64,000 nucleotides of DNA from Candidatus Adlerbacteria bacterium (GTDB lineage Bacteria > Patescibacteriota > Minisyncoccia > Phycocordibacterales > SBAW01): the NCBI GenBank assembly GCA_903851045.1, contig CAINNF010000019.1, positions 47,854 to 111,853 on the forward strand, given 5' to 3'. The position numbers were made by a program, and so were the translations under genes. This document shows, piece after piece, positions 2,126 through 64,000 of the stretch; the first letter of the stretch is position 1; each line of letters starts with the position of its first letter. A model generated the notes under the pieces. The model worked only from the letters and a program-made list of their open reading frames with translations. It was not told the origin of the DNA and did not search any database.

Positions 2126-3252
2126 TGTGGTTGAGTGGTGGTGAGTAATGTCTCTGGGCGGACGACCTCTGTCTGGGCATCGGGATACAACTTCTTGAAT
2201 TGTTTGAAGGAGACCTCTTCGTTACCCAACTTGCACTCGTATGCACGCAGGTCGCGTGCCCGGTCGAGTATGAAGTCGATCTCAAGTCCCTTCCATGTGC
2301 GCCAAAACTGTATGTTTGGGCCGAATGTCTCTAGGTTCGCTGTCTTGAGTAGTTCGGTAAAGACGAACTGCTCGAACACGAACCCCTTGTCTGTGCGCGT
2401 ATCGACTTGGCTGAGGTCGTTGATGATAGCATTGCGAACTCCACAGTCCAGGAAGAATACTTTAAAGGATCGACGTAGTTCGTTTCGTTTATTGCGTGAA
2501 AAGGAGTGGACACGACGGATCACGTACGCCTGTTCGAGGAGGCGAATATATTTTTCGACCGTGGGGCGGCTGATCGAGAGACTTTGAGCTAGCTCGTTCG
2601 TAGATACTACCGAGCCGACTTGGTGCGCCAGCAACTTGAGCAGAGTCTCAAAGTGGAGCGGGCTTTTTATCTTCTCGAATGTGAATATGTCCTTGTACAG
2701 ATAGCTTGTGGTGATGTTTTTGAGTATCTGCTCCTTTTGTGATACGTCGGACTCGGCGACGACCCCGGGGTATGACCCAAAGCGCATGAGCGTGTGCAGC
2801 ATGTTACGGTCCACTGTTTGGGCAGAACGTATCTCTTCGAGCGAAAGGGGGAGTAGTGTAAAGGCAAACGCTCGACCCGTGAGCGGCTCGTTTATCTTGT
2901 TGGCAAGGTCAAAGGACGAGGAGCCCGTCGCTATGATCTGGATGCCTGGGTAAGTGTCGACAAAAAGCTTGAGGATGGCCCCTATGTTTTCGACCGTTTG
3001 GGCCTCGTCGAGGACGACCAGCTTATGGTCGCCGACGAGTTCTCGCAGCTTCTTTGATACGCCGACGACAAGATGCTCTCGTACCGACATCTCCTCACAG
3101 TTAAAGTAGGCAGCGGGGTTGCCGTGCTTTGCGAGCAGCTTTTTTGCGAGAGTGGTCTTGCCTGCTTGGCGAGGGCCAAAAATGAGCAGTATTTTACCAG
3201 AACCTATATTTTTTGAGATTTGCTCCTCTATTTTACGTTGGAAAATAAGCAT
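2122..3252 (-). CDS. AAA+ ATPase (COG1373/DUF4143-type)
   Basis: Walker A GPRQAGKTTLAKKL and Walker B LVVLDEAQ; the C-terminal region matches the DUF4143-like architecture. Confidence 0.75.
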   Translation of the reverse strand: MLIFQRKIEEQISKNIGSGKILLIFGPRQAGKTTLAKKLLAKHGNPAAYFNCEEMSVREHLVVGVSKKLRELVGDHKLVVLDEAQTVENIGAILKLFVDTYPGIQIIATGSSSFDLANKINEPLTGRAFAFTLLPLSLEEIRSAQTVDRNMLHTLMRFGSYPGVVAESDVSQKEQILKNITTSYLYKDIFTFEKIKSPLHFETLLKLLAHQVGSVVSTNELAQSLSISRPTVEKYIRLLEQAYVIRRVHSFSRNKRNELRRSFKVFFLDCGVRNAIINDLSQVDTRTDKGFVFEQFVFTELLKTANLETFGPNIQFWRTWKGLEIDFILDRARDLRAYECKLGNEEVSFKQFKKLYPDAQTEVVRPETLLTTTQPQ

Positions 3253-3354
3253 ATTTATTAAAAAAGAAGTTTTTGCATTATTTATTGCATTTTCTACTTT
3301 TTTTAACCATATCAGTATATAAGTAGTCGCACAAGATTGTGCTAGGACGACAGA

Positions 3355-4305
3355 TCATCGCTTTATGACCTCCCGGACGTAGTAGCGGCGTTCGTTGGGG
3401 GAGGTGGCGAGTTGGATGCGGATCAGGAGGTCGATGATGATCCCGAAGCTAAAGAGGAGTATGCCCGCGAGGAGGAAGAAGAAGCTGAGGAAGAACCATC
3501 CATTGCGGTTGAGCGAGAGGCCGAGGAATAGTTTGCCATAGAAGGTCCACGCGAAGGAGACGGCGCTCATGGCGTAGGCGACGAAGCTGAGGTAGCCATA
3601 GAGGTGGAGCGGGCGCTGGGAGTACTTGTGGATGAACCAGATATAGACGAGGTCGATAAGGCCGCGCAGCGCCTTAGAGGGGCCGTATTTGCTCACCCCG
3701 TGGACGCGCGCGCGGTCGGTGACGACCAGCTCGCCGATAGTGAAGCCTTTCCACTTTAGGAGCGCGAGGATGTAGCGGTGCATCTCGCCGCCGATGTCGA
3801 GGCTCTGGACGGCGGCGCGGGTGTAGACGCGTAGGGTGCAGCCGGTGTCGTGGACGATGTCGCTGATGAGTAGGCGGCGCAGCATGCGGCCGATGCGGGT
3901 GAGGATGCGCACTTGGGCGTTGTCGCTGCGGGACTTGCGCCAGCCGGCGACGACGTCGAGGTTTTCTGTACGCATCTTGGCAAGCAGGCGGGGGATGTCG
4001 TGGGGGTCGTTTTGGCCGTCGCCGTCTAGCGATATGACGACTGCGCCCGTGGCCGCCTTAAAGCCCGCGTCTAGCGCGACCGCTTGGCCATAGTTGCGAC
4101 TGAGGTTGATGATCGTGACGTTGGTGAGCGCCTTGAGCTCTTGGAGCGAGCCGTCGGTGGAGCCGTCGTTGATGTAAATGACCTCGAAGGGCTGACCCAG
4201 CGAGGCGAGCACCTCTTGGAGTTCGGTATTAAGCCGGGGGATATTACCGGCTTCGTTGTATATCGGCACGACGGCAGAGAGTGACGGGTGTTCGGGGTTT
4301 GTCAT
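3355..4305 (-). CDS. GT2 polyprenol-phosphate glycosyltransferase (DPM1/ArnC/GtrB-like) with C-terminal TM helices
   Basis: SAVVPIYNEAGNI, YINDGSTDGS and DGDGQNDP motifs; hydrophobic C-terminus. Confidence 0.85.
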   Translation of the reverse strand: MTNPEHPSLSAVVPIYNEAGNIPRLNTELQEVLASLGQPFEVIYINDGSTDGSLQELKALTNVTIINLSRNYGQAVALDAGFKAATGAVVISLDGDGQNDPHDIPRLLAKMRTENLDVVAGWRKSRSDNAQVRILTRIGRMLRRLLISDIVHDTGCTLRVYTRAAVQSLDIGGEMHRYILALLKWKGFTIGELVVTDRARVHGVSKYGPSKALRGLIDLVYIWFIHKYSQRPLHLYGYLSFVAYAMSAVSFAWTFYGKLFLGLSLNRNGWFFLSFFFLLAGILLFSFGIIIDLLIRIQLATSPNERRYYVREVIKR

Positions 4306-42878: not shown

Positions 42879-43562
42879 ATGAGGGTAGAGCCGTACTCGA
42901 TAGGATCATATTTACATATAGTCAAACGCGGAGCTCGCGGTATGGCTATTGTCGGTAATGATGCGGACCGTTGGCGCTTTTTGAAATTATTGTTGTATAT
43001 GAATGACGTCTATTTGGACGAAAACTGGGAGCAGACGGTCGGCACCATGGGCTTTCTTGAGCGCCCTGATTTTTGGCCCGAGCGCGAACCGTTAGTACAC
43101 ATCCTTGCGTTCACACTTATGACAAACCACTTGCACCTGCTCGTAAAAGAAATTCGGCAAGGGGGAGTCTCTCTTTTTATGAAAAGACTCGGGCAGAGTA
43201 TGACGAACCATCACAATGGAAAGCATAAGCAGAGTGGAAGTTTATTTCAGGGATCGTTTCGTAGCAAGACCATCGATTCGGATGAGTATCTTCGATATGT
43301 AGCTGCATACGTGATGGTAAAAAATACATTCGAATTATTCTCAAACATTGATTTTGCAAAAAATATTTACGATTTCGAATCAGCGTGGGAGTGGGCGACA
43401 ACTTACCCATTTTCGAGCTTAGGAGAGTACGCAAACATACGAACTCATCCAATTGTGGAAAAAGATGTTTTGGGCGAGATTTACACTGACCCAATAATCT
43501 TCAAAAGCTTCTCCAAAGAGGTCCTCCTCGGGGGTGAGTGGAAGCAGTTCGAGTTTGAATAA
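42879..43562 (+). CDS. REP-associated tyrosine transposase (RAYT), copy 2
   Basis: YHIVKRG...AFTLMTNHLHLLV (HuH)...GSLFQGSFRSK...YVAAYVMVKN; paralog of 19143-19823; flanked by inverted REP-B copies. Confidence 0.75.
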   Translation: MRVEPYSIGSYLHIVKRGARGMAIVGNDADRWRFLKLLLYMNDVYLDENWEQTVGTMGFLERPDFWPEREPLVHILAFTLMTNHLHLLVKEIRQGGVSLFMKRLGQSMTNHHNGKHKQSGSLFQGSFRSKTIDSDEYLRYVAAYVMVKNTFELFSNIDFAKNIYDFESAWEWATTYPFSSLGEYANIRTHPIVEKDVLGEIYTDPIIFKSFSKEVLLGGEWKQFEFE

Positions 43563-52034: not shown

Positions 52035-52107
52035 GGGCCCTTAGCTCATTTGGTAGAGCGCCTCATTTGCAATGAGGAGGTGACCGGTTCGATCCCGGTA
52101 GGGTCCA
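52035..52107 (+). tRNA. tRNA-Ala (anticodon UGC)
   Basis: Cloverleaf: acceptor GGGCCCT/AGGGTCC with G3:U70, D-arm GCTC..GAGC, anticodon stem CCTCA/TGAGG with loop TTTGCAA, T-arm GGTTCGATCCC. 73 nt, no encoded CCA. Confidence 0.9.
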
Positions 52108-53686
52108 CATCGTCGGAGTTTTGTTCGCAAAACTCCTCAAATAGCCTTGTACTGCTTAACGAATTAGCGGTTCGAAAGCCATCGCATTTAGTGTATGGAA
52201 GTCGTTCGTCAAAAAGGAAGAAATAAAGACGTTGTTTTTCTTGCGGACCTGCTTTTTGCCAGATCATTACTGGGTTTTTCAGCATTCCCGTAGACTTTGC
52301 TAGTGCGGTTCGATAAGGCACAGCGAGGTCTCGTTTAGACCCACTCGGCGAGCCCTGCTCGATCTCTTTCGCTGTTGCTTCAATCTGCTCCTCATACGCC
52401 CTCCTGACGGCGTCGGAGCGCGTGGTGCGTGCAAGTTCGGTGAGCTCACGCAACTTATCTTGCAGCTGTTCCTGTCGCCGAGCATTGAGGTTCTCTTGCT
52501 GTTTTAAGCCCACGACCTCTTGCTTCCATACTCGTTCAAATGTGAGTTGTACAAGCTCGTCCGTTTCCGCCTTGAGGCGGTTACGTCTAAGTAGCGTATC
52601 AAAGTCGCTCTCGAGGTCTGCTTTGCTTAGCATTTTTGAACGTAAGGCACAGCCTTTTGTCATGCAGTAGTAATACGGATAAGTCTTACTGCGTCCTTTG
52701 CAAAACGCACCGGTTAACTTTTGCTTGCACTCAGGGCACAACACCAAACCGCGCAGAGAAAAGTCAGATGAGACATCTCGTCGAATGCGCGTACCCGACA
52801 CCTCCTTTCTCAAACGTTTTTGGATAAGCTCAAAGGTCTCAACCGAGATTATACCTCTATGGCGTCCCTTACGACGTGCGATGCCCCAAGGTGCGTATTC
52901 GACATCTCCGCAATGAACCACGTCTTGCAACATGGCACTCACCTCATCGAGGTAATGTTCCGCGGTTCTCTTTGAGTTTTTCCAGTACTTGCGCTTAAAA
53001 AGAAACCGAGCGACGTCCACTTTGCGAATGAGGTTGCCTGACGCAAAAGCTTCGAGAGCTTCCTTCAAAATGCGACCGTCTTTGTTTGGGACAAGCAACT
53101 TACCGTGGAGTGGGTCTTTGATCATGTCGTAACCCCTTTTACCTCCAAATGACCAGTAGCCGAGCTCAAGACGCGCTTTCATTTTTTGAATAACTTGGCG
53201 GCGGTTTTGTTTGCGTTCTAGTTGCGCTTGACCTGCGAAGATGAGCTCGACAAACTCGCCCTCCTCACTCTCGTCAAAGTTGTAATTTGGACACCTCAAC
53301 TTAATATCTCTTATTTTAAAGGCAGCACGTAGTTTGAAGTGTGCATTTACATCACGCGCAAGGCGCTTTAGGTCATCAAGATCGACAACAAACTTCTTGT
53401 GTGGATGTGCATCTATGTACGCAAGCATCGCTCGCATTGCAGGGCGGAGCATAAAGTCGCCGGCACCGGTAAAAGTATCTGGAAATGTCTTTACAAAAGG
53501 TACTCCGATCGATCGTAAGTCCTGTTTACAGCGCTCCTCTTGGCTTTCGCGTCCGTGCCCCTCTTTCTCTTGGCGCTTGCTTGAGACGCGCACGTACACA
53601 AGACCCTCTCTACCAGCGTAGGGGTTAGCGTCCTCCACTATTTGCTGGAACTCTTTTCTAACTTTTTGTATTGACATAGTTTTCAA
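52046..53686 (-). CDS. Large serine recombinase (resolvase/invertase N-domain, recombinase domain, Zn-ribbon); the ORF reads antisense through the tRNA-Ala 3' end
   Basis: LVYVRVSSKRQ (catalytic Ser), recombinase-domain motifs, CPECKQ...YYYC...C zinc ribbon, C-terminal coiled coil. The last ~20 codons are antisense tRNA, so the real C-terminus may be shorter. Confidence 0.8.
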   Translation of the reverse strand: MKTMSIQKVRKEFQQIVEDANPYAGREGLVYVRVSSKRQEKEGHGRESQEERCKQDLRSIGVPFVKTFPDTFTGAGDFMLRPAMRAMLAYIDAHPHKKFVVDLDDLKRLARDVNAHFKLRAAFKIRDIKLRCPNYNFDESEEGEFVELIFAGQAQLERKQNRRQVIQKMKARLELGYWSFGGKRGYDMIKDPLHGKLLVPNKDGRILKEALEAFASGNLIRKVDVARFLFKRKYWKNSKRTAEHYLDEVSAMLQDVVHCGDVEYAPWGIARRKGRHRGIISVETFELIQKRLRKEVSGTRIRRDVSSDFSLRGLVLCPECKQKLTGAFCKGRSKTYPYYYCMTKGCALRSKMLSKADLESDFDTLLRRNRLKAETDELVQLTFERVWKQEVVGLKQQENLNARRQEQLQDKLRELTELARTTRSDAVRRAYEEQIEATAKEIEQGSPSGSKRDLAVPYRTALAKSTGMLKNPVMIWQKAGPQEKQRLYFFLFDERLPYTKCDGFRTANSLSSTRLFEEFCEQNSDDVDPTGIEPVTSSLQMRRSTK

Positions 53687-53906
53687 GTTCGTCCCGTATC
53701 ACATTCCGACAAAGTGCTTCGAGGTAACGCAGCCGATCGAGTATCTGTTCATCCGTGCTCTTGTTGTCCTTGAGCATTTTTCGATACTCGGCAATGGATA
53801 CTACCGTGGGGCAAGTATCATCATCTCTAGCTTGCGCACGAATAGCAACGACGTTTTTCTCGTCGAGTGTATTGCGTCTTTTGTTTTTGTTTGTGTCGGA
53901 CTTCAT
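53658..53906 (-). CDS. Small charged hypothetical protein upstream of the recombinase (possible regulator/RDF)
   Basis: 82 aa; overlaps the recombinase start by ~29 nt. Confidence 0.35.
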   Translation of the reverse strand: MKSDTNKNKRRNTLDEKNVVAIRAQARDDDTCPTVVSIAEYRKMLKDNKSTDEQILDRLRYLEALCRNVIRDELENYVNTKS

Positions 53907-54290
53907 GAGAAGCCCGTTCCTTCCTTGGCAGGTTCCTGACGCTATAAATAGCGACCCGCCAAAGAAGCAAAGGGCTTCCTCGGTTGGTAGTGGCGTCAGG
54001 ATTACCGCTACATCAAAAAGACCCCGACACTTGTGTGTCAGGGCCCAACTTTTTTACTTGAGGTTCAAGCGCAAAAGTAGGGCCACCACATTTCCGATAC
54101 GTCGAAAAAGTGTTGGGCCTGCTTTTGTTTTTGAAATGCTCCAAGCAGAGACGGTTCTTGCGAACCTCGGTACCATGCTACCGATAGCGATAAAAGGGTC
54201 TAGTTGTGAAAGAGCGAGCAAGATAATTGTAGCAAGTACGTAGGCCCCGTCAAATAAAGCACCTGTGTATTTCCAGTAACTTTTACAAAA

Positions 54291-54299
54291 TGCTATAAT
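54291..54299 (+). promoter_or_regulatory. Extended -10 promoter element TGcTATAAT
   Basis: tgctataat ~200 nt upstream of the 54500 gene; the leader contains a 12-bp stem-loop (54372-54416). Confidence 0.35.
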
Positions 54300-54499
54300 T
54301 AAACGGTACAACTGAATATGAGCCTAAACCTCTAGCGGTGCTAGGGGCATGGCGATAGTAAAGTCCTGCAAAGACATAAAGAACCCGTCATGGGGTTGTC
54401 TTTGCAGGCCGTATGGGGAAACCTGTACGCTCGGCGCAAGCCGGGGTCCCGTGGCGGGCTCTTTGTGTACCTCACGGGTTTATCCGCTAAGGAAAACCC

Positions 54500-55171
54500 A
54501 TGTCAAACATTTTCATACTTTTGTTCGTAGCCTCCCTCGCCTGTGCAGTGGTTGGTGTGATCCGACCGTCCGCCATTCGTTTTCAATCACGCGTCCGAGC
54601 TCTACTCGTGTTCGGTGGAGCGACCCTCGTATCTCTTATTCTCGTTGGAATAACCTCGAGCTCTAGTCCTGTAGTCCAAGCTCCTGTTCAGACCGTAACG
54701 ACAACAACTGTCAATCAGAACGAAACTCCCGATGGACAGATCAAGCAGATCGTCATGAGCGTGCCGACCAACGGTAAATACCAAGGCTCGGGTACTATCG
54801 GAAAGGTTGATGTGTATCACGTCCCTGATCAAAACGACCCAACAAAGTTTATTGGGTGGGGTGTCGATGTTGATCTCCACATCGAGGGGTCGCGTGCTCT
54901 CATGAACGAGGAAATGGCAGAAGTTTACTACGCTCTATATTCAAACCGCAAAGATATAACCTCGATAGCGGTTTCTGCCTACGAACCAGTCAGCGATAAG
55001 TACGGTAACCAGAAAGACATGGAGGTATATCACACTTTCCTAAAGGCAGACGAGGCGTCAAAGGTTAACTGGTCGCTTGGACACGACGACTTGGTTTACA
55101 CGGTGTTGCCGAAAGTATGGACTGTTAATCTCGACATATCGGCTACTAACCCGGGACTTCTTCAAAGATAG
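54500..55171 (+). CDS. Membrane-anchored hypothetical protein (island cargo)
   Basis: Two N-terminal TM helices then a ~170-aa soluble domain; no family recognised. Confidence 0.5.
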   Translation: MSNIFILLFVASLACAVVGVIRPSAIRFQSRVRALLVFGGATLVSLILVGITSSSSPVVQAPVQTVTTTTVNQNETPDGQIKQIVMSVPTNGKYQGSGTIGKVDVYHVPDQNDPTKFIGWGVDVDLHIEGSRALMNEEMAEVYYALYSNRKDITSIAVSAYEPVSDKYGNQKDMEVYHTFLKADEASKVNWSLGHDDLVYTVLPKVWTVNLDISATNPGLLQR

Positions 55172-55175
55172 ACTT

Positions 55176-57152
55176 TTAGTCCCACAAAAGTTTAATTTTT
55201 GCGTCTATTTCGTTTTCTAACGCTGTTATCTCCTTTGCATGTTTGCGTATTTTCTCGATAAGCAAGTCCATTTTGTTTTGCTCTTTAAGTGACGGCAGAG
55301 GAATACGACTATCCAGAAACAGCTCTACCTTGAGCCTCTTTCGGTTTGTAGTACCTAGACTAGATCGAGCACACAAGTCAGCGAACTTTTTGGACTTTGT
55401 TATCCTCTGTAAATAGTCCTCAGTTATTAGGTTTTTTTGGATTGAAAAAACAGGAAAGTCTTGTGATACAACGCACCCGTCAATATCCTTTGGTATTATT
55501 CCGAACGCTCCGTTTCTAGCATCTATCTTTGAAATGAGAAACTGCCCAGCACGTCCGATAAACTGCCTCTTTGTCTTTATTTTTGATCCAACAACCTCTT
55601 GTCTCAACTCAACTCCTTTCCCGTAAAGTTTGACCGTTGCTTGCTTGTAAAGTTTATCGTTTTCTAACTTAACAATGTCTTTGGATTGAATGAGTAGGTC
55701 ACGTAGAGGAACCATCTTTGATCCATCTTTGCGCGATGTGACGGGTTTGCTTTTCAGATACGCATCAACAGATAATGTTTTTTTATCCGCTGAAAGGACA
55801 TCTTTTCTATCAATCAGTGCGATCTTTTCATTTGTTGAAGTGTAAGTCTTTCCACTTGCAATACTCTTTCTAAAACTGAGTATTGCTTCTTGAATATCTG
55901 GTAGATCATTCTCGTGGATAGGTGTTCGCTGACTTCCTAAGTCATACCCGTCAGCATCAACACGACAAAACATTAAACTGCTATTTTTTTCTGCGATAGA
56001 CTTGTCTAGGAATAAGATCGATGTTGTTACTGTTCCTGAGTAAGGATTGAACGTTCCCGCAGGTAGTGACACCACACACCACAACCCCTTTTCAAGCAGT
56101 AACTCTCTGATCCTGACGTGTGCTTTCGTGTCGCCAAAAATAACTCCTTGAGGGACAACTACACCTAATTTCCCCTTACTAGAAAGATGATCGACCATAA
56201 AGCGCAAGAAAAGGAGTTCGGTAGCTTTGGTTCCCATGCGCAGGTCTTCTGACACACTTTCCTCGTCGATCTTGCCGCTAAACGGGGGGTTGGCGAGTAT
56301 CACGTCGAACTTGTCTTTCATTCCTGTCGTATCAGTAAGTGAGTTTTGTCGATCAAGACGTGACTTTGTTAGGCCGTGGAGATGCAGGTTCATCATGCCG
56401 AACTTGATCATGTCCTCATCGCTGTCGAAACCGGTGAACATATGGTTAAACAAAAACTTTTTCTCGTCTGCAGACAACTTGTCCATTGCGCGAGGACTAC
56501 CGGCTTTCTTTAACTTGTCGCTCGTGTACTCGCCGGCGATGTAGCGGTAAGCGGCGACGAGGAAACCTGCCGTGCCACAAGCTGGGTCGAGTATTGTTTC
56601 GCCTTTCTTTGGATCAACAACCTTAACCATAAAGTCGATAATGTGGCGTGGTGTACGAAACTGGCCATTTGTACCCGCAGACTTTAACTTTTCCAAAAGG
56701 TACTCGTACATGTCACCAAAGACGTCCTTGTTGCCCTCGTGTGCGATAGCGTCGAGCTCTTTTGCAAATGCTTCTATCTCGTGCAAAACGCGGCGCAGTG
56801 TTGGTTTATCAAATATCTTTATGTGTGCGTTACGAAAAAGAAGTTTGACGGTAGGGTTTGTCGACTTCTTTTGCAAAACATCAAACGATGCCTCAAGTGT
56901 TTTAAAGAGGTCTTCTGCGTTGAGTGCCAACAAGTTTTGCCACCGGTATTTTGCAAGATCGCCGGTGAATATCTTTCCACTTTCATCGGTGATGCCGAGC
57001 AACTCAGCTTCGTCATCTTTGATTGAAAGAGCGCGTAGAAAAAGCAGATAGTTTAATTGCTCGATGATCGTCTGCGGATTGGAGACACCGGCACCAAAGA
57101 GGATGTCCATTAGCGCGTCTATTCGGTGCTTGTAAAGTGAAATGGTATCCAT
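55176..57152 (-). CDS. hsdM: Type I-like R-M N6-adenine DNA methyltransferase fused to a single target-recognition domain (HsdM-halfS fusion)
   Basis: HsdM N-terminal helical domain, motif I DPACGTAGFL, motif IV ILANPPFSG; the C-terminal ~230 aa resemble an HsdS TRD plus conserved helix (LPSLKEQNKMDLLIEKI...LENEIDAKIK). Confidence 0.75.
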   Translation of the reverse strand: MDTISLYKHRIDALMDILFGAGVSNPQTIIEQLNYLLFLRALSIKDDEAELLGITDESGKIFTGDLAKYRWQNLLALNAEDLFKTLEASFDVLQKKSTNPTVKLLFRNAHIKIFDKPTLRRVLHEIEAFAKELDAIAHEGNKDVFGDMYEYLLEKLKSAGTNGQFRTPRHIIDFMVKVVDPKKGETILDPACGTAGFLVAAYRYIAGEYTSDKLKKAGSPRAMDKLSADEKKFLFNHMFTGFDSDEDMIKFGMMNLHLHGLTKSRLDRQNSLTDTTGMKDKFDVILANPPFSGKIDEESVSEDLRMGTKATELLFLRFMVDHLSSKGKLGVVVPQGVIFGDTKAHVRIRELLLEKGLWCVVSLPAGTFNPYSGTVTTSILFLDKSIAEKNSSLMFCRVDADGYDLGSQRTPIHENDLPDIQEAILSFRKSIASGKTYTSTNEKIALIDRKDVLSADKKTLSVDAYLKSKPVTSRKDGSKMVPLRDLLIQSKDIVKLENDKLYKQATVKLYGKGVELRQEVVGSKIKTKRQFIGRAGQFLISKIDARNGAFGIIPKDIDGCVVSQDFPVFSIQKNLITEDYLQRITKSKKFADLCARSSLGTTNRKRLKVELFLDSRIPLPSLKEQNKMDLLIEKIRKHAKEITALENEIDAKIKLLWD

Positions 57153-57156
57153 GTTT

Positions 57157-59529
57157 TTACAACGTTAATATCTTTGCGTTTGAAATATCCGACACGAGCT
57201 CAGTAAGCTCCTCTTTCGAGAAAACATCAAGCCACTCGGACACTGAGTATGCCTGTGCGAACTCATCCCAGCGCAAGAAGTCGAGTGTCGGGTTTGCCTG
57301 TACAGTTTGGCGGAACTTATCGTTTGAGATCGCTTGGTCAGCAATAAACTCGACCATGACCGCGCGTTTGAATGAGCTCTCTGGTTTGTCGGATTGAGCA
57401 AACTTATTTACCAGTGCTTCTTTGAACGAAGTGAGCTGCTCGTCACGGGTCGGAAGTGGCTGCTTGCCGATCGCAGACAAGAAAAACTCGCGCACGCCAG
57501 CGACGATGCGATGCGAGACCTGCAAGTTTTCCTCGTTGAAGTACAGCTTTGGTTTGTTGAGGAGTGTTTCGTTGATCTCGGTGATAAGGTCCTCAACTTT
57601 GTCCGGGTCCTCAAGGGCGCCGGACACCATGTCGGTCTTATTGCTCATGAAAGTCTGGACTGCTTTCGTCCACTCGTCACGGTACATATTTCGGTCCACA
57701 GTGTCGCCTTCAGGGAGGGTTATTACGTCCCGGGTCAAAACAACGTCCGGGGTTTGGGAGACACGAGGCTCGGAAAGGCCCTTATCTTGGTCCACGGGGC
57801 CCACATCTCCAGAACCTGCTGTACCGGTCGAACTGGTGGTGAGACCTCCCTCACGGGCCAATTTAGCGGGGGCTTCCCAGTCGTATTTGTCGTCGAAGTA
57901 AGAAACCACCCCACAAAAGTCGAAAACAACGAACTCTTTCTTGCCGATCTCGGGGCACAGGCGGGTACCTCGTCCTTTGATCTGTTGGTACGTGATCGGG
58001 TCGAAGATGGGGCGTGCGAGCAGGATGTTTAATATCTCTGGACAATCAAAACCAGTAGCGAGCATGTCCACAGTCACACCGATGCGCGGTAGTTTGTTTG
58101 TGTCTTTGGCAAAGTCTTTTGCGATGTCGTGTGCGCCGGGAATGCGTGAGGTGATGGTCATTGCAAAGCGACCACCATATTCAGGCTTGAGTTCGTTTAA
58201 TATTTTTTCGAGTGCAAGCGCGTGGTCTTGTGAGACTGCAAAAATAAGCGTCTTGCCGATCTCGCCATCTGGCGTGCGCACTGCATGCTCGAGGAACTCC
58301 TCCATCATGCGGCGGTTGCGCACTGGGAAGTGCACTTTCTTTTCAAGGTCGCGTATCTTGATGCTTTCGCCCTCCTCAAGCTCCACGTCGTTGAGTTCGG
58401 TGATGCCCTCCTCGGAGAGTGCTTGCTGTGTGATCGACGTGTTCATTTTGTGATACTTCGGTGGTATCAAAAACTTTGCAGCCACGCCGTCTTGGAGTGT
58501 GTATCGGTATGTCGCTACACCATCATCGCAACCGAAGTAACGATATGTGTCGCGTTGAACACGACGCTCAAGTTTGCGTGGGTCTTTTTCTGCGAGCTTG
58601 TCGGTATTTATGTTCTTGAGGAAGTCGCGCGGCGTTGCGGTGAGACCGATCTTGGTTGCGCCGACGAAATGGTCGACCGCTGCGCGTGCCTCAGGTGAGT
58701 AAATACTGCGATGTGCCTCGTCATGGATTATGAGATCGAAATATCCGGGTGAAAAGTCACGACCGCCGTGGAGCATGAGCGACTGTATGGTTGCCACGAC
58801 CACGTTTGAACCAGTGAGGTTTTTTCTGTTTGAACCCCAATAAGTACCGACAGCTGAGACACCACGAAGCAACTTCTCAAAAGTATTTTTAGTCTGGATA
58901 GCGAGTGACTTACGATCTACCAAAAAAAGGACGTTCTGCGCATTGTTGGAACGCAAAAAGCGAGAGATGATGAGTGAAGCCAAAACGGTTTTACCAGTAC
59001 CAGTCGCCATTTCCAAAAGAAAAGCATGTTTACCCTTGTCGTAGTTTTCTGCGATCGCGTTCCATGCGTCGATCTGGTACGGACGGAGCGTTACATTGTC
59101 TGCGACATCATTGAAGTAGCTCTCAGTAACCGGCTCCTCGCTAAACTTCTTTGCGAGGTTCATTGAGCGCGAACTTTGGCGGCGCATTAGGTCCTCTTGC
59201 GAGAAAAAAGCTGGCACTACTTGCGCATCACCGCCGTTATCGAGGTCCCACAAGTACACGAGCTTATCGTTAGCAAGGTAAATAAAACGTACTTTTGGGT
59301 ACTGTGCCTGAATGTAGTCGAATGCTTGTTTCTTTGCGCTGTATGGATCGACATCAGGGCGCTTTGCTTCGATGAGCGCGATAGCGTGACCGGAAGTGTC
59401 TTTGAGAACGTAGTCGGCGCGACCAGCATCTCCATGGTCCTCAAAAATAACTTGAGATGAGTTCTCAATGTCCCAGCCCGCTTCGCGGAGTTTTTTATCG
59501 ATAATGACGCGTGAGTATGCCTCGTTCAT
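57157..59529 (-). CDS. hsdR: Type I restriction enzyme R subunit, compact (EcoEI/Type IB-like)
   Basis: N-terminal PD-(D/E)xK (ADYVL...ALIEAKR), SF2 helicase motifs (MATGTGKT, IIHDEAH, helicase-C), C-terminal EcoEI_R_C-like region. Start placed at MNEAYSRV; the ORF extends to 59580. Confidence 0.8.
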   Translation of the reverse strand: MNEAYSRVIIDKKLREAGWDIENSSQVIFEDHGDAGRADYVLKDTSGHAIALIEAKRPDVDPYSAKKQAFDYIQAQYPKVRFIYLANDKLVYLWDLDNGGDAQVVPAFFSQEDLMRRQSSRSMNLAKKFSEEPVTESYFNDVADNVTLRPYQIDAWNAIAENYDKGKHAFLLEMATGTGKTVLASLIISRFLRSNNAQNVLFLVDRKSLAIQTKNTFEKLLRGVSAVGTYWGSNRKNLTGSNVVVATIQSLMLHGGRDFSPGYFDLIIHDEAHRSIYSPEARAAVDHFVGATKIGLTATPRDFLKNINTDKLAEKDPRKLERRVQRDTYRYFGCDDGVATYRYTLQDGVAAKFLIPPKYHKMNTSITQQALSEEGITELNDVELEEGESIKIRDLEKKVHFPVRNRRMMEEFLEHAVRTPDGEIGKTLIFAVSQDHALALEKILNELKPEYGGRFAMTITSRIPGAHDIAKDFAKDTNKLPRIGVTVDMLATGFDCPEILNILLARPIFDPITYQQIKGRGTRLCPEIGKKEFVVFDFCGVVSYFDDKYDWEAPAKLAREGGLTTSSTGTAGSGDVGPVDQDKGLSEPRVSQTPDVVLTRDVITLPEGDTVDRNMYRDEWTKAVQTFMSNKTDMVSGALEDPDKVEDLITEINETLLNKPKLYFNEENLQVSHRIVAGVREFFLSAIGKQPLPTRDEQLTSFKEALVNKFAQSDKPESSFKRAVMVEFIADQAISNDKFRQTVQANPTLDFLRWDEFAQAYSVSEWLDVFSKEELTELVSDISNAKILTL

Positions 59530-59545
59530 AAAATATAAAATATGC

Positions 59546-59728
59546 CTACTTGATCTTTGTCTTAGCCATGAACCGCTCAAACTCGATGCGGTCCACTCTG
59601 AACTCCTTGCCGATCTTGTGGGCAGCGAGCCGCTTTGCCTTGATGTAACGGTAAATAGTCATGACATTCACCGATAATATCTTGGCCACCTCCGTTGCTG
59701 TGTAATACGTTTTTTCGTCTTTATTCAT
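59546..59728 (-). CDS. Excisionase-family helix-turn-helix DNA-binding protein (MerR-like HTH_17)
   Basis: YTATEVAKILSVNVMTIYRYIKAKRLAAHKIGKEFRVDRIEFERFM. Confidence 0.65.
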   Translation of the reverse strand: MNKDEKTYYTATEVAKILSVNVMTIYRYIKAKRLAAHKIGKEFRVDRIEFERFMAKTKIK

Positions 59729-59764
59729 ACCGTTTAGCTACCCTAGAATGATACTTGACTTTTG

Positions 59765-59794
59765 TTGACATTACAATACCTGAGCGAGTACAAT
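59765..59794 (+). promoter_or_regulatory. Sigma-70-like promoter TTGACA-18-TACAAT for the DUF4145 gene
   Basis: -35 at 59765-59770, -10 at 59789-59794, ATG at 59801 (near-leaderless). Confidence 0.45.
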
Positions 59795-59800
59795 ATCCTC

Positions 59801-60481
59801 ATGAAAGCTAAGCTTAGTAACGCAAATGTAAGAGCACGATGTCCTGATTGCGACGGCGCTTTGACAACCTTTGAGAGGGTTTATGGTGGACGTGAGTTGG
59901 GTCACGTACTGATAAATTACTCTCACTACTATGGTCCTAGTATTTATTCACGTATCCTCTACACGCTGTTACGTTGTGCAGGTTGTGGCCGTGGTGGTTT
60001 AGCAAAAATACACGATAATGGTAATGAAAACGATGCGGCGCTCGAGTGGTTTTTCCCCAACTCGCTAGAACTATCGGAGTTACCCGATGCTGTCCCAGCT
60101 GAGATTGAGGCTGACTTTCGTGAAGCTGAGACATGTGCCTCGTTCGGCGCAAAGCGAGGTGCTTCTGCGCTCATCCGATCGGCGCTTGAAAAAGCACTGA
60201 AGGCGAGTGGTTATGTAAAGCGCTCACTCGAAGCTAACATCGACGATGCCGCGAGTGATGGTGTTATCACTGATGCAAGAAAGCAAAAGGCGCACGAAGA
60301 TGTGCGTGTGCTCGGTAACGACGTTTTACATGATGCGTGGAGGGAGGTAACCGATGAGGAAGTGGAGTTGGCTATCCACTACACACAGCGTGTATTGGAA
60401 GACCTTTACGATGACCGTAACTCAGTCGAAAACATCTTACTTGCTAAGAAGCGCTTGCCTGAAAAAAAGACTGAAAACTAA
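59801..60481 (+). CDS. Zn-ribbon + DUF4145 (HEPN-like) domain protein
   Basis: N-terminal CPDCDG...CAGCGRG; C-terminal ASALIRSALEKALKA...VRVLGNDVLHDAW...VLEDLYD matches the DUF4145 consensus (R..GN..aH). Confidence 0.7.
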   Translation: MKAKLSNANVRARCPDCDGALTTFERVYGGRELGHVLINYSHYYGPSIYSRILYTLLRCAGCGRGGLAKIHDNGNENDAALEWFFPNSLELSELPDAVPAEIEADFREAETCASFGAKRGASALIRSALEKALKASGYVKRSLEANIDDAASDGVITDARKQKAHEDVRVLGNDVLHDAWREVTDEEVELAIHYTQRVLEDLYDDRNSVENILLAKKRLPEKKTEN

Positions 60482-60484
60482 AAC

Positions 60485-61366
60485 ATGTCCTCTAAAAAGC
60501 CCTTAAAAGAGAAAACAGTTGCGCAAGAGATCATCGAACGGAGCGGAAACTCCTTTCATTCGCGTGTCGTAAATAAACTGCGCGAGTTGGAGTGGGGCGT
60601 GTTGGTTAGTCCTCATTACAACGATAACTTTACCGACAAACCTCGTGAAATAGACATAATCGCTGAGAAGAAGTTTGACGTGAATGAGTTTATGAACGAC
60701 TGGCTTGGCACTCTCAATGTGCGCCTATTTATCGAGTGTAAGTACATCAACGGCGATACTGTTTTCTGGTTTGAGGCTAAAGATATGGAACGAGCTACCC
60801 ACCGCATAATGCGAGACACGGGGCTCGAAGACCCTCGTCATAATACCGGTATACAAAAACATCATTACTACACTGCTGTGCCTGTCGCAAAGCTCTGGGC
60901 TTCCAACTCAAACAAAAGTGAGGACAATGAGGTAATGAACAAAGCCATCAACCAAGTGCTTAATGGGATGATCTACTACCGAAATGGTGGAGACCTCAAA
61001 ATAGCGTCAAATAAAAACGGGTATATGGACCGAGTGTTGAAACGTACATCGTATCCACTCATTGTTGTTAACTCATTCGAAAACTTTCATGCAACGCCGA
61101 TGAGTGGTGATGGGGAGCCGCAGCCTATAACCGAGCCATTCGCTTTGGAAGTAAACTATGCTTACACCGACAAGGATCACAAAGGGGTCAATGAGTATTT
61201 TCTGATTGACGTCGTGAGCTTGGATAAGCTTCCTGAGTTCCTTACATCAGCCATAGAAAAAGCAGACGTGGCGACCATATCTGAAAAACTGAGGTGGGAC
61301 CAGCGTTCTGCCCGTGCGGCGGAGAGCCGAAGTCAACAGAACCGTGGGATTAGCGACTACATGTAA
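60485..61366 (+). CDS. Hypothetical protein with N-terminal PD-(D/E)xK-like nuclease motif
   Basis: EIDIIAE ... LFIECKY (D ... E-x-K spacing) in the first 95 aa; C-terminal ~190 aa unassigned. Confidence 0.5.
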   Translation: MSSKKPLKEKTVAQEIIERSGNSFHSRVVNKLRELEWGVLVSPHYNDNFTDKPREIDIIAEKKFDVNEFMNDWLGTLNVRLFIECKYINGDTVFWFEAKDMERATHRIMRDTGLEDPRHNTGIQKHHYYTAVPVAKLWASNSNKSEDNEVMNKAINQVLNGMIYYRNGGDLKIASNKNGYMDRVLKRTSYPLIVVNSFENFHATPMSGDGEPQPITEPFALEVNYAYTDKDHKGVNEYFLIDVVSLDKLPEFLTSAIEKADVATISEKLRWDQRSARAAESRSQQNRGISDYM

Positions 61367-61372
61367 AACTTT

Positions 61373-61870
61373 ATGACAATCCTCTACATAGCAGCCGGTA
61401 TCATCATTGCAGCAGCCGTTGTACTTGCTTTTTTACGTGGTGATCTTGGTGGTGCTGATGAGGAGAAGGCAAAGTATGACTACAAACGCAGGAGCTTCTT
61501 TCTCACGCGTGCGGAGCACGAGTGTTACGACGCGCTGGTTGCCGCTGTTGGTAATGAGTATCTCGTCTTTGCTCAAGTGCATCTCCCGACGCTAGTCGAC
61601 AACAAGGTAAAAGGGCAAAACTGGCGTGCTGCATTTCGCCACATCAGCGAGAAGTCAGTCGACTTTGTGTTGTGCGATAAGGCGTACATCTCTGCGAAGC
61701 TCGCCATTGAACTGGACGACAAGACACATGAGCGTCCTGAGCGGCAGGAGCGGGACCGGGAGGTGGAGCGCATCCTGCAGGGCGCCGGTCTGCCTCTCTT
61801 GAGGCTCGAGAACCACGGGAGCTTTAGCCCAGCTGAACTTGCCTCCAAAATAAAAGAAGCTCTCAAGTAA
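61373..61870 (+). CDS. TM-anchored DUF2726 (restriction-endonuclease-like/NERD-related) domain protein
   Basis: N-terminal TM; FLTRAEHECYDALVAAVGNEYLVFAQVHL...SVDFVLCDK...IELDDKTHERPERQERDREVERIL matches the DUF2726 pattern. Confidence 0.65.
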   Translation: MTILYIAAGIIIAAAVVLAFLRGDLGGADEEKAKYDYKRRSFFLTRAEHECYDALVAAVGNEYLVFAQVHLPTLVDNKVKGQNWRAAFRHISEKSVDFVLCDKAYISAKLAIELDDKTHERPERQERDREVERILQGAGLPLLRLENHGSFSPAELASKIKEALK

Positions 61871-62113
61871 GTGCCTAAAGCGAGACTTGCAACTTCAAGC
61901 ATTCGAAGTTGGAATGGCCACATGGTTTTTCCAAACAAACAAAACACCGCCGAGCTCCAGCGGATCATCAAAGAAACAACCGGGCAGGATGTGTCCATCC
62001 GCGAGACCTTTAGGGTTTGGCATTATTTAAACAAGGTGCTCCTTTGCACAAGTCTGTGGAATGATGACGTTGAGCCTCCGCGCGCGAGGGCACAGCAAGC
62101 GCTCTTTGACTGA
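61871..62113 (+). CDS. Small hypothetical ORF (low confidence)
   Basis: GTG start directly after the DUF2726 stop; no RBS. Confidence 0.2.
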   Translation: MPKARLATSSIRSWNGHMVFPNKQNTAELQRIIKETTGQDVSIRETFRVWHYLNKVLLCTSLWNDDVEPPRARAQQALFD

Positions 62114-62943
62114 CAAGCGGAGTGCGTTTAAACCTTACGCGCGAGAAATGTAAGTTGGTTGAAGTGGTTTTTATCTCCACTTTGCTACAAAATGGCTTGG
62201 ATTAAAGGTTTCTTGTTTTTTAACCTCACTTACATCAACTTCAACCACATTAATCGCTTACACTTCGCATTTGGAGCATTCATTTCGCCTTACGCGCGAG
62301 TACTCCAAGTTGCTCACTGTGGTGGTTTGGCTGTTTTTGTTGTATTGCATAGCTTTTTTACGTTATACGCCTGTTGGAGCCTTTGTGGCTATTGGAGCCA
62401 GAATGTGCTCGATCACCTTGGCGTTGAATGCGTTGCCTAAGGCCTTGTAGCGCTGTGTGTTGTTGAGCAACGAGTGATCTTTCGCGCGCGCGCCGCGCGC
62501 GGAGTTGTTGTAGCTATTCTAGTACACAGTTCAATACCCTCATTGTGTACCTACTGAAATGATAAAGACCTTGTGTCCGCTAGGCATTCCTGCAACAACG
62601 GGCTCGTTCGGTAGTAATCCCAGAACCGTTCGAGGCAGCTTTTAAGCTGGTTCGAAGTATTATGGGAGGTGTCCACACGAGGAAGCAGGTTTCAGGTACC
62701 GTATTTTGATGTCTTTAAAAATTAGCATTCTTTCTCACATAAAAGAAAATGCTGAAGATAAAAGCCTACTAGATTTTTGCTCTACAGAAACTATTTTGTT
62801 ATTTTGCAAAAAACTAAAATAAGCAGAGCAGAAAGAGAAATGGGCGTCAGGTAGCGATTTTCTATATATTGAGTGGTGCGTAAAGGGACCACTTCATGTT
62901 TTTTTGGATTTATACTGAGGGTATATTAGTAGCACAAAGTCTT

Positions 62944-64000
62944 TGTGAAAAAAATACTTTTGGTCGCGGTTTTGGTGTGTGCTCCTTCGTTCGCGTTCGC
63001 TTCGTTTGACCAGAATCTCCAGTATGGCTCGCATGGGCTCGCGGTGCGTGACCTGCAGATCTTTCTTGCGTCGCAAGGGTGCTTGACGATGAACCCGACG
63101 GGTAATTTTTTTGGCGTAACACGTCAAAGTGTGAAATGCTTCCAGGGGCAGCACAATGTGCCGACGACAGGGTACTTCGGCCCTATGACACGTGCGCTCG
63201 CGAACTCGCTTGCTGCGTCCAGCACATCCACCCAGTCGCAAGGTACGCAGCCGCAGGGGACTCAAAAGCAGCAGACTTTTCCAGCGACGCCACCGACGCA
63301 AGGACAGGGTCAACAAAATCAACAGCCATCAGCGACCGCGACTAGCTCCGATAGTAGCCAATACTCGCTCGCGCAGGCCATGAGCGACAACGCGCAACTT
63401 TCAACCATCGCTTTTAGTGGGCTGGCGTTCATCACGGGGAGCGCAGGGGCGGACACCTTCTTCCCGCCGGGCAAGGTGGCGGACTTCTTCGGCTTTCAAT
63501 ACATGCGCGATGTGGATACCGCCGGGTATGGGCACAATACGCAGTTCCTTACGCGCGTCGCCAATAATGTACTCTCCATCCTAACCGATGACCAAAAGGC
63601 GAAACTTATCGCGCTCGCCAAGGTGCAGGCGCCCAAGTACACCAACTTCGCGTACAACCGCTTCTTGGTAACCAACGCATTTCGTCGCGACCTAACCGGT
63701 GATATCCCTGCGGGTTCGACGGGTCTTAGTACCTCGTCGATATCGACCTACGTCGGTGATCTCTACAAAACGGATGCGGACCTTAGCTACAACCGCGCGC
63801 TCGTCGTCGGCGCAATCATCAACTCGTTCACCGGCACACAGAAGGCCTATCTTGCGAAGATGCAGTTCAACGACTTCACTACGTGGCCAGACGTGCCCGA
63901 GAACGCGGCTATCAAGCAGGGACTCAGTAATAGCGAATATATCGCGCTCATGACCTACGCGAGCGAACTCTTTTCGTGGTACAAGGGGAGCGTCGTCGCG
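62944..64000 (+). CDS. Secreted protein with N-terminal peptidoglycan-binding domain and Q-rich linker (partial, continues past window end)
   Basis: Not in the ORF track because no stop falls inside the window. GTG start after an in-frame TAG; signal peptide VKKILLVAVLVCAPSFAFA; GSHGLAVRDLQIFLASQGCL...GYFGP PG_binding_1 motif; GC returns to host-like. Confidence 0.6.

Follow-up and report, generated by a model that had tools for sequence, protein, structure and literature searches.

The stretch of Candidatus Adlerbacteria DNA analyzed here, hereafter the window (64,000 nucleotides, nt; contig CAINNF010000019.1, positions 47,854 to 111,853 of the forward strand), harbors a single tRNA gene, tRNA-Ala(UGC), on which ARAGORN and Rfam agree, and directly 3' of it an island of low GC content whose first gene encodes a large serine recombinase (LSR). 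An earlier note on this DNA had drawn attention to the fall in GC content at the tRNA gene and to a recombinase reading frame running antisense through about 60 nt of it, and both observations were confirmed. Taking all the evidence together, we consider it highly probable that positions 52103-62677 constitute a 10.6-kb integrative element, a member of a large family in Patescibacteria (Candidate Phyla Radiation, CPR), which was inserted by its own LSR into the 3' end of tRNA-Ala(UGC) and in doing so split its own recombinase gene. The features that bear on this reading are as follows, in window coordinates.

52035-52108, plus strand: tRNA-Ala(UGC), the integration target (ARAGORN; Rfam RF00005, 65.8 bits)
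52046-53686, minus strand: LSR gene in its integrated form, 546 amino acids (aa) from TTG or 543 aa from an ATG at 53677 (protein P0001)
52103-52109: attL identity block, GTCCACA in tRNA sense and TGTGGAC on the LSR strand, predicted to hold the crossover
52115-52136: inverted repeat GGAGTTTTG-TTCG-CAAAACTCC in the P' arm, within the LSR coding sequence (EEFCEQNS) and adjoining the tRNA on its 3' side
62551-62676, minus strand: severed C-terminal extension of the LSR gene, 41 codons (VDTSHNTSNQLKSCLERFWDYYRTSPLLQECLADTRSLSFQ, then stop), encoded by the attP P arm
62671-62677: attR identity block GTCCACA, the same 7 nt as at attL
62678-62908: AT-rich sequence of 34.6% GC that separates attR from the following host gene, presumably the native tRNA trailer (B')

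The host sequence to the left (1-52034) exhibited a GC content of 0.554, and all host windows of 10.6 kb fell between 0.541 and 0.567, whereas the island (52109-62677), at 0.478, lay below this range, which ruled out a uniform GC profile. The content was 0.346 in 62678-62908 and 0.553 from 62909 to 64000, in keeping with the resumption of host-like GC that had been described beyond the AT-rich stretch. The left flank has the gene order UvrB-UvrA-UvrC-Ddl-pterin dehydratase (PCD), and the right flank opens with a peptidoglycan-binding protein starting at 62945. The tRNA gene is host-derived up to about nt 71-74, and its CCA is unencoded at the occupied site.

The first gene of the island matched the Pfam domains Resolvase (4e-16) and Zn_ribbon_recom (25.9 bits, cutoff 25.3), with a match to Recombinase just below the cutoff (20.5 against 21.1 bits); Recombinase and zinc-ribbon domains are also precomputed for many of its homologues. 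It further matched the PHROG integrase family phrog_95 (3e-45) and, far under the family cutoff, the NCBIfam model CcrB (3e-14). A PDB search with the single LSR sequence gave no match, and the profile of the LSR family matched the catalytic domain of the TP901-1 integrase (3bvp, 1.2e-11). The catalytic motif YVRVSSKRQ (YxRVSSxxQ) is conserved, R30, S32, and Q36 being invariant across an alignment of 50 sequences. Over 63 nt (52046-52108), the last 20 codons of the gene (VDPTGIEPVTSSLQMRRSTK) and its stop codon coincide exactly with the complementary strand of the tRNA, from the 3' end of the tRNA as far as the D-loop.

This overlap is a property of the whole family. A total of 557 LSR homologues were found, and among the best 120 all names given by the source are Patescibacteria or CPR, which is why we take the host of the window to be a CPR bacterium. 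At least 97 of these best 120 end in tails antisense to a tRNA or to a transfer-messenger RNA (tmRNA), such as ...DVDPTGIEPVTSSLQMRRSTK for tRNA-Ala and ...DVEMGGIEPPCK for tmRNA. In 80 loci from species representatives of GTDB, ARAGORN detected a minus-strand tRNA or tmRNA gene (tDNA) beneath the LSR 3' end in 47, the targets being tRNA-Ala with the anticodons UGC, CGC, or GGC (21 loci), tmRNA (22), tRNA-Leu (2), tRNA-Arg (1), and tRNA-Ile (1). The Rfam tmRNA model added tmRNAs under LSR 3' ends that ARAGORN had missed, and in many of the remaining loci the contig ends at the LSR 3' end.

Phage enzymes form the best-known class of LSRs, and the closest PHROG is an integrase family, both of which could speak for a prophage or phage satellite carrying a serine integrase. 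Scans of the island ORFs (open reading frames) with Pfam, NCBIfam, and PHROG revealed no phage structural (capsid, terminase, portal), replication, or conjugation genes, the elements of the family span only 3.3-11 kb, and close relatives of the LSR were absent from IMG/VR (best 27% identity) and GenBank phages (at most 27%), with only distant LSRs in PLSDB; on this evidence a phage nature of the island is barely credible. Outside the CPR, the unannotated record of Tritonibacter mobilis p2 (locus L104, NZ_CP110385.1 770857-777606) was observed to contain the C-terminal half of a truncated LSR (ORF 3022-3810) that is 31% identical to residues 304-543 of the window LSR and runs antisense through a tRNA-Thr(GGT) gene (3671-3745) beside murA. 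Serine recombinases overlapping tDNA therefore exist in Alphaproteobacteria too.

The attachment sites and the two parts of the recombinase gene

The stretch 62100-62940 had been described as some 840 bp of AT-rich, non-coding DNA and proposed as the region to search for a crossover site. The AT richness stood, and attR was indeed found there, but the stretch is not wholly non-coding, since it holds the 41-codon LSR piece at 62551-62676. A tblastx comparison of this right-end DNA with the family loci yielded matches in about 35 of them, all to one segment, 62581-62676, on the LSR strand. The corresponding ORF is homologous to the C-termini of the uninterrupted family members P0055, P0079, and P0086 (e.g., ...VDTSYKTLNRLKTFLRRFWEHYQSSPALRKALS in P0086 and ...VDPAIKTLNSLKTYLSRFWDYYQSSPSLQKALENA in P0055). 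A hidden Markov model detected the extension piece in 40 of the 80 GTDB loci, on the LSR strand and 1.7-10 kb upstream of the LSR. Each of the 34 distal pieces examined (33 others and that of the window) is an intact reading frame of 32-47 codons, in most cases 35, and they follow the consensus VDxxgktlNrLKxYLsRFWxyYqsSPxLQkaLen although identity among the LSRs is no higher than 40-70%. The window extension retains RFW, YY, SP, and LQ, and departs from the consensus in a C for Y (KSCLERFW) and in its length of 41 rather than 35 aa. The simplest reading of these sequences is that attP would lie within the LSR ORF, integration parking the last ~35 codons at attR while the integrated gene continues into the tRNA. 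The tandem arrays in loci L020, L034, and L042, in which a second full-length LSR ORF continues without a break into the extension left by the element nearest the tDNA, account for the "uninterrupted" LSR copies found in chromosomes.

One could object that the tRNA overlap and the extension are without significance, the real protein ending before the tRNA and the ORF running on to a chance stop. The tails vary with the target, the reconstructed excised tails of the loci with tDNA repeats (treated below) are short and unrelated, and McMurdie et al. (PMC3146451) deemed a functional role unlikely for the part of the serine integrase DsiB that is antisense to ssrA in Dehalococcoides islands. A chance stop is nevertheless at odds with the extension, whose sequence, length, and stop position are conserved in 34 of 34 elements at the LSR divergence just given, which is contiguous with the LSR in circular and tandem forms, and whose junction reading frame (DV[DE]) is fixed throughout the family; we judge this objection very improbable.

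In 31 elements, that of the window among them, attL (where the LSR gene meets the tDNA) was set against attR (where the severed piece begins), and the two sites proved to have little in common. In 28 of the 31 the identity is limited to 5-8 nt, (T)GTGGA(C) on the LSR strand or (G)TCCAC(A) in tRNA sense; the elements at tRNA-Arg and tRNA-Leu have only (A)TGTGG in common between attL and attR, and locus L022 exhibits GTGCAC at both sites. As these targets with variant acceptors narrow the block, the common core is GTGG, that is, CCAC in tRNA sense at nt 71-74. By this delimitation the window element measures 10,568 bp (52103 to 62670); the 31 elements range from 3.3 to 11.0 kb, and only one is larger. 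On visual inspection, the sequence beyond attR frequently looked like a terminator hairpin (e.g., L005, L019, L041, L065), which is what a displaced native trailer should show. With the crossover at the extreme end of the gene, the tRNA body stays host DNA and no carried tDNA fragment is needed; only the trailer, plus any encoded CCA, is replaced by integration. Both tRNA-Ala and tmRNA are charged by alanyl-tRNA synthetase and have the G3:U70/A73 acceptor end in common, and this alanine-type acceptor end explains the dual target range of the family.

The arms of the sites exhibit a further regularity. The T-arm motif T[CT][GA]A[AT][CT], which belongs to the T-loop/T-stem of the tRNA, begins 11 nt past GTGGA in 29 of the 31 B arms, and the same motif begins 16 nt past GTGGA in 25 of the 31 P arms. 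In the window, the B arm reads GTGGA-ccctaccggga-TCGAACC and the P arm GTGGA-cacctcccataatact-TCGAACC, and the reconstructed junctions predicted for it are ...CCGACGATGTGGACACCTCCCATAAT... (attP) and ...GGTAGGGTCCACACGAGGAAGC... (attB). For the LI integrase, Rutherford et al. 2013 (PMC3783163) reported that the motif of the zinc-ribbon domain (ZD) occupies positions 16-24 of attP half-sites and positions 11-19 of those of attB, and proposed this 5-bp shift as the basis of attP/attB discrimination. The 5-bp offset of the motif in the present family is a striking match to that signature, and the T-arm-like motif may be the one bound by the ZD of the LSR. On the other side of the junction, the positions of the inverted repeat at 52115-52136 were paired in 77% of cells across 49 loci, compared with 32-51% when the partner was slid, and the repeat is kept in the family partly by synonymous compensatory changes; it could serve as a substitute 3' hairpin for the tRNA or form part of the P' half-site.

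A different geometry, with the crossover in the T-loop and a repeat of the tDNA 3' end at the far boundary, was inferred by McMurdie et al. for the ssrA islands of Dehalococcoides (PMC3146451), and we had at first inferred it here as well, from direct repeats in five loci (L075, L015, L066, L063, L079), which copy 15-23 nt of the tDNA 3' end from the T-loop onward. It would place both half-sites of attB in conserved tRNA sequence, and in locus L007 (11560-11800) a 21-nt tDNA fragment starting TTCGA abuts the LSR, with a full tRNA-Ala and terminator lying ~120 nt beyond. This geometry was demoted once the conserved P-arm peptide and the 5-8-nt cores had been recognized in 31 elements, in all of which the attR block adjoins the conserved coding P arm and not tRNA sequence. 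The window island lacks any tDNA repeat of 8 nt or longer (repeat finder, Smith-Waterman with shuffles, and fuzzy matching gave nothing above chance), a circular relative (L102, see below) has only GTGGACCC as tRNA-like sequence at attP, and the 20-nt repeat of L015 (7337-7356) lies outside the extension-type attR of its own LSR element and can belong to another element. A T-loop crossover hence appears very improbable to us; the repeats in L075, L066, L063, L079, L015, and L007 may have been left behind by other elements or may reflect an attP of a second design. In the window itself, AAGGGACCAC at 62883 had been entertained as a right-end tRNA fragment; it belongs to a hairpin resembling a terminator and was set aside after the true attR had been found.

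The conserved core of the element

Besides the LSR, three features of the window element recur across the family.

53658-53906, minus strand: small ORF of 82 aa, a conserved companion of the LSR gene, whose start it overlaps
54321-54445, plus strand: LOOT RNA (Rfam RF03000), full-length match, 78.1 bits against a gathering threshold of 46.4
54500-55171, plus strand: membrane or secreted protein of 223 aa with a hydrophobic segment at its N-terminus, co-oriented with LOOT and 54 nt beyond it

The C-terminal ~45 aa of the small ORF (...SIAEYRKMLKDNKSTDEQILDRLRYLEALCRNVIRDELEN) were detected by tblastn directly upstream of the LSR in 49 of the 80 loci, and a homologue is present in the circle L102. 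No match to it was obtained in Pfam, NCBIfam, PHROG, or PADLOC; from its position, it is a candidate regulator or recombination directionality factor (RDF).

The LOOT RNA scored above the gathering threshold of the Rfam model in all 12 loci tested. With a covariance model of our own, built from these 12 family copies, it was located in 46 of the 80 loci (40 of the 63 with enough flank), lying 381-3349 nt upstream of the LSR. Its structure is well supported, with 97.6% of cells paired and compensatory changes in 30 of 31 pairs. A co-oriented ORF follows LOOT within 400 nt in 48 of 52 cases, mostly 35-70 nt downstream, and 39 of these 48 ORFs exhibit an N-terminal hydrophobic segment, compared with 25% of background ORFs; in L079, the ORF after LOOT encodes a 40%-identical homologue of the window protein. 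This placement just upstream of genes for membrane or secreted proteins suggests that LOOT would act as a 5' leader rather than as a free-standing small RNA (sRNA). LOOT was reportedly described by Weinberg and colleagues in 2017. Rfam 14 lists it as a metagenome-based sRNA (PMC7779021), and the literature, which we covered incompletely, yielded no account of where in genomes it lies or what it does; with these loci, the orphan RNA gains its first genomic context. In locus L053, a SAM (S-adenosylmethionine) riboswitch (RF00162, 6364-6471, plus strand) scoring 47.1 bits, just above gathering, was observed inside the LSR element between LOOT and the LSR gene.

Empty sites, a circular relative, and the proposed cycle of integration

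That the island was inserted, as the earlier note had proposed, was upheld by comparison with distant relatives of the same synteny. In L097, L099, and L100, whose PCD proteins are 74-80% identical to that of the window (~76% in DNA), the order Ddl-PCD-tRNA-Ala is kept, with UvrC also upstream in relatives of this synteny (for P0242, seen in gene order), and unrelated host genes follow. The homology of all three to the window stops at 52108/52109. An encoded CCA and a terminator can be read after tRNA-Ala in L097, whose empty site ends ...TCCACCA, compared with the occupied site of the window, where ...TCCAC is followed across the junction by ATCG. On the right side, homology to the host DNA of L093 resumes at 62909, and these limits of homology bound the island at 52109 and 62908.

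A relative of the element was also found in circular form. Two Logan contigs from two runs, L102 (SRR29078246) and L103 (SRR29078150), each of 5,417 nt with a 30-nt terminal overlap, are identical after a rotation of 109 nt and represent one circle of 5,387 bp. It encodes P0055, an uninterrupted LSR of 554 aa that is 54% identical to the window LSR and contains attP internally (GTGGA, 16 nt, TTGAAC), together with the small upstream ORF, LOOT with a small membrane ORF behind it, and a gene resembling AbiEii; neither a tRNA nor a recognizable replication gene is present. The circle is in-silico evidence that members of the LSR family exist in excised form. Breaks of Logan contigs at 52063/52064 (L087, L090, L098) had been considered as a sign of excision in the window species; they proved to be an assembly effect of tRNA-Ala sequence common to two species in the same samples.

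Several observations, besides the tDNA repeats described above, weigh against insertion by the LSR at the acceptor end. The relatives with empty sites are only ~76% identical in DNA, and each carries different genes downstream of the tRNA. A close relative of the right-flank gene (95% identical in aa, 91% in nt) matches the window only from 62909 and has RND (resistance-nodulation-division) efflux genes upstream and no tRNA, so that the ancestral right junction is not reconstructable. No empty site or excised form of the element was encountered for the window species, every contig with an identical PCD or LSR protein, from several samples, carrying the same island in the same place, and an exact look-up of the reconstituted 564-aa LSR in the protein collection gave no record. 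As to the sites themselves, the 25 P-arm cases of the T-arm motif are non-independent, the P arms being homologous and protein-coding, and the B' half-site, formed by the native trailer, is unconserved, which is unusual for an LSR attB.

The occupied sites and the missing reconstituted protein, along with the off-consensus positions of the window extension and a right flank that differs from the nearest relative, would also suit an island that integrated as described and has since become immobile, its LSR and severed piece being relics or serving some other role. Yet the LSR ORF is intact with all family-invariant residues present, the extension is an intact ORF with its RFW, YY, SP, and LQ, the two 7-nt cores are identical, and the GC content has not been ameliorated. 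We consider such a fossil state a possibility to be taken seriously, albeit doubtful, and the present-day mobility of the window copy is putative.

Returning to insertion by the LSR itself, we propose the following cycle, in which synapsis and the 2-bp stagger are modeled on the biochemistry of LSRs. On the circle, attP would be internal to the LSR ORF, with about 35-40 codons left to the stop. One LSR dimer, bound to attP, would synapse with another on the 3' end of a tRNA or tmRNA gene, presumably cut within CCAC with a 2-bp stagger at a dinucleotide that would lie in this core, and exchange strands. attP and attB would be told apart by the T-arm-like motif, 5 bp farther from the crossover in the P arm. 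The tRNA body would remain host DNA, and its trailer and terminator would be displaced to attR; with the terminator lost, transcripts started at the tRNA promoter would extend in antisense into the 3' end of the LSR gene. The integrated LSR would lose its extension (...NxLKxYLxRFWxYYxxSPxLQ...) and gain a tail dependent on the target, here 20 tRNA-antisense codons, and excision would rejoin both pieces of the gene. The element would thus consist of a conserved core (small ORF, LSR, and LOOT with its membrane-protein gene) plus exchangeable cargo.

It is speculative that the exchange of tails regulates the activity or direction of the LSR, an idea raised for DsiB by McMurdie et al. (PMC3146451). 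Carried further, and put forward here as a tentative model that we would not expect to hold in full, the circle would produce the full-length enzyme for attP x attB recombination, and the integrated element a tRNA-antisense-tailed one, encoded antisense to tRNA read-through and changed in activity or direction. Splitting of its own gene would then replace or supplement an RDF, the alanine acceptor end (G3:U70 to A73 region) would be recognized by way of the T-arm mimic in attP, and LOOT would be the cis leader of a surface-protein gene. Serine integrases are major tools of genome engineering, and the control of their directionality is an active structural question. An attP inside the integrase ORF, giving the enzyme two C-terminal forms according to its integration state, offers a testable case of self-regulation, and the family provides dozens of natural attP/attB pairs at the universally conserved 3' end of tRNA-Ala and tmRNA genes, which could be ready-made landing sites.

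Known integrative elements and the exchangeable cargo

A serine recombinase at a tRNA gene had been called uncommon, and the literature agrees: the authors of Islander stated in 2014 that serine integrases were not known to target tRNA genes, and the precedents are DsiB at ssrA (PMC3146451) and a minority of tycheposons. The element of the window is thus of a known but rare kind, the tDNA-targeting serine-integrase island, and its closest precedent, judged by analogy with the published description of that system, would be the Dehalococcoides ssrA islands with DsiB. DsiB is a serine integrase of ~540 aa, described as distantly CcrB-like, whose gene is the first beside attL; its ORF always crosses attL into the tmRNA gene with the stop outside the island, and McMurdie et al. 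(2011, PMC3146451) speculated that the gene is complete only on the circle. Those islands are low in GC, occur in tandem arrays, and lack transfer genes in the integrated elements (PMC3146451). The window LSR likewise overlaps attL and the tDNA 3' end, by 63 nt. In contrast, the Dehalococcoides islands have a 20-bp ssrA repeat and an inferred T-loop insertion, compared with a repeat of only 7 nt in the window and of 5-8 nt at nt 70-74 in its family; their six-gene integration module, with DsiA (a small serine recombinase), RecF-like, ParB, and Mom proteins, has no counterpart among the ORFs of the window island; and no conserved severed extension was reported for them, whereas the window family has the extension, tRNA-Ala as well as tmRNA targets, and LOOT.

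With the phage LSRs (A118/LI, Bxb1, phiC31, TP901-1), the family has in common the Resolvase, Recombinase, and zinc-ribbon domains, an att identity of a few bases, and the 5-bp outward placement of the attP motif. Phage LSRs, however, usually have protein-coding or intergenic targets and an attP outside the integrase ORF, and in the window family one attB half-site is the tRNA acceptor/T arm and the other an unconserved trailer. Splitting of a gene by integration is known from tyrosine recombinases: the archaeal SSV1-type integrase has attP inside its int gene, which is split on integration, and in the integration-dependent immunity of mycobacteriophages attP lies in the repressor gene, so that the repressor loses a C-terminal tag. 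The window enzyme differs from both in being a serine recombinase and in swapping only its last ~35 codons.

Tycheposons of Prochlorococcus are likewise small cargo elements at tRNA and tmRNA genes, mostly with tyrosine recombinases and often with replication modules; 27 of 937 use an LSR, and the portions of text searched contain no split integrase (Hackl et al., bioRxiv 10.1101/2020.12.28.424599). Classical tRNA/tmRNA islands as cataloged by Islander (PMC4383910) also begin where an intact tDNA ends and have their integrase gene beside it, but they use a tyrosine integrase, and the tDNA fragment carried by their attP leaves a displaced one, tens of nt long, at the far end, whereas the window island has no Phage_integrase domain and no tDNA fragment. 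Island finders based on these two features will miss such elements. No paper describing tDNA-targeting LSR elements of the CPR was found within our incomplete coverage of the literature. Apparently undescribed are the split integrase gene with its conserved severed extension, the acceptor-end crossover common to tRNA-Ala and tmRNA, the T-arm mimic at attP spacing, and the conserved structured RNA module. The family as a whole appears to be an undescribed, widespread group of small integrative elements that move restriction-modification (R-M) and defense cargo among CPR/Patescibacteria with tiny genomes.

The remaining genes of the window element make up such a cargo.

55176-57152, minus strand: HsdM-S, type I methyltransferase fused to one specificity (target recognition, TRD) domain (Pfam N6_Mtase 3e-51, HsdM_N, Methylase_S)
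57157-59580, minus strand: HsdR, EcoAI-like type I restriction subunit (Pfam ResIII, HSDR_N, Helicase_C; PADLOC REase_I 5e-63)
59546-59728, minus strand: excisionase-family helix-turn-helix (HTH) protein, 60 aa, at the head of the R-M operon (TIGR01764 excise 1e-12, MAD1 8e-7)
59762-60481, plus strand: DUF4145 protein, PD-T7-4-like (Pfam DUF4145 2e-12; PADLOC PD-T7-4 8e-10; phrog_1305 4e-25)
60485-61366, plus strand: 293-aa protein with no family match, with a 57%-identical homologue inside the L039 element
61373-61870, plus strand: DUF2726 protein of a nuclease-related fold family (Pfam DUF2726 3e-29; weak MTES_1575/DUF559)
61871-62550: small ORFs with no homologues and a repeat, 680 nt between the DUF2726 gene and the severed LSR piece

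These assignments, with the membrane protein at 54500-55171, substantiate the R-M and defense-like genes, membrane protein, and small ORFs that had been read from the sequence. In PADLOC, HsdM-S also matched MTase_I (5e-110) and Specificity_I (1e-34); HsdR matched the NCBIfam model restrict_EcoAI at 6e-79, under its family cutoff, and the type I scores in NCBIfam generally stayed below equivalog cutoffs. With the HsdR, HsdM, and HsdS functions encoded together, the three form a predicted type I R-M system. The HTH protein, which carries Pfam HTH_17 in the gene table of L003, had been considered as the RDF of the element and was rejected in this role, as it accompanies HsdR and HsdM-S in L082; it is probably part of the R-M module and not of the integration module.

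The operon from the HTH gene through HsdM-S (55176-59728) is ~80% identical in DNA to L082 3098-7520, with HsdR 92% identical in aa, and the LSR of L082 is only ~41% identical to that of the window. The same R-M module behind so divergent a recombinase means that cargo is exchanged between elements, and the comparison indicates that the exchange of this module between distantly related elements would have been recent.

Between the cargo and attR, a 36-nt imperfect direct repeat (75%) was observed at 62133-62168 and 62288-62323, and a remnant of a C5-methyltransferase suspected at 62363-62470 was dropped for want of Pfam support. In the left host flank, an ORF at about 42879-43562 (plus strand), upstream of uvrB, exhibited a weak match to Y1_Tnp, the IS200/IS605 transposase domain, in the gene tables of L001 and L084.

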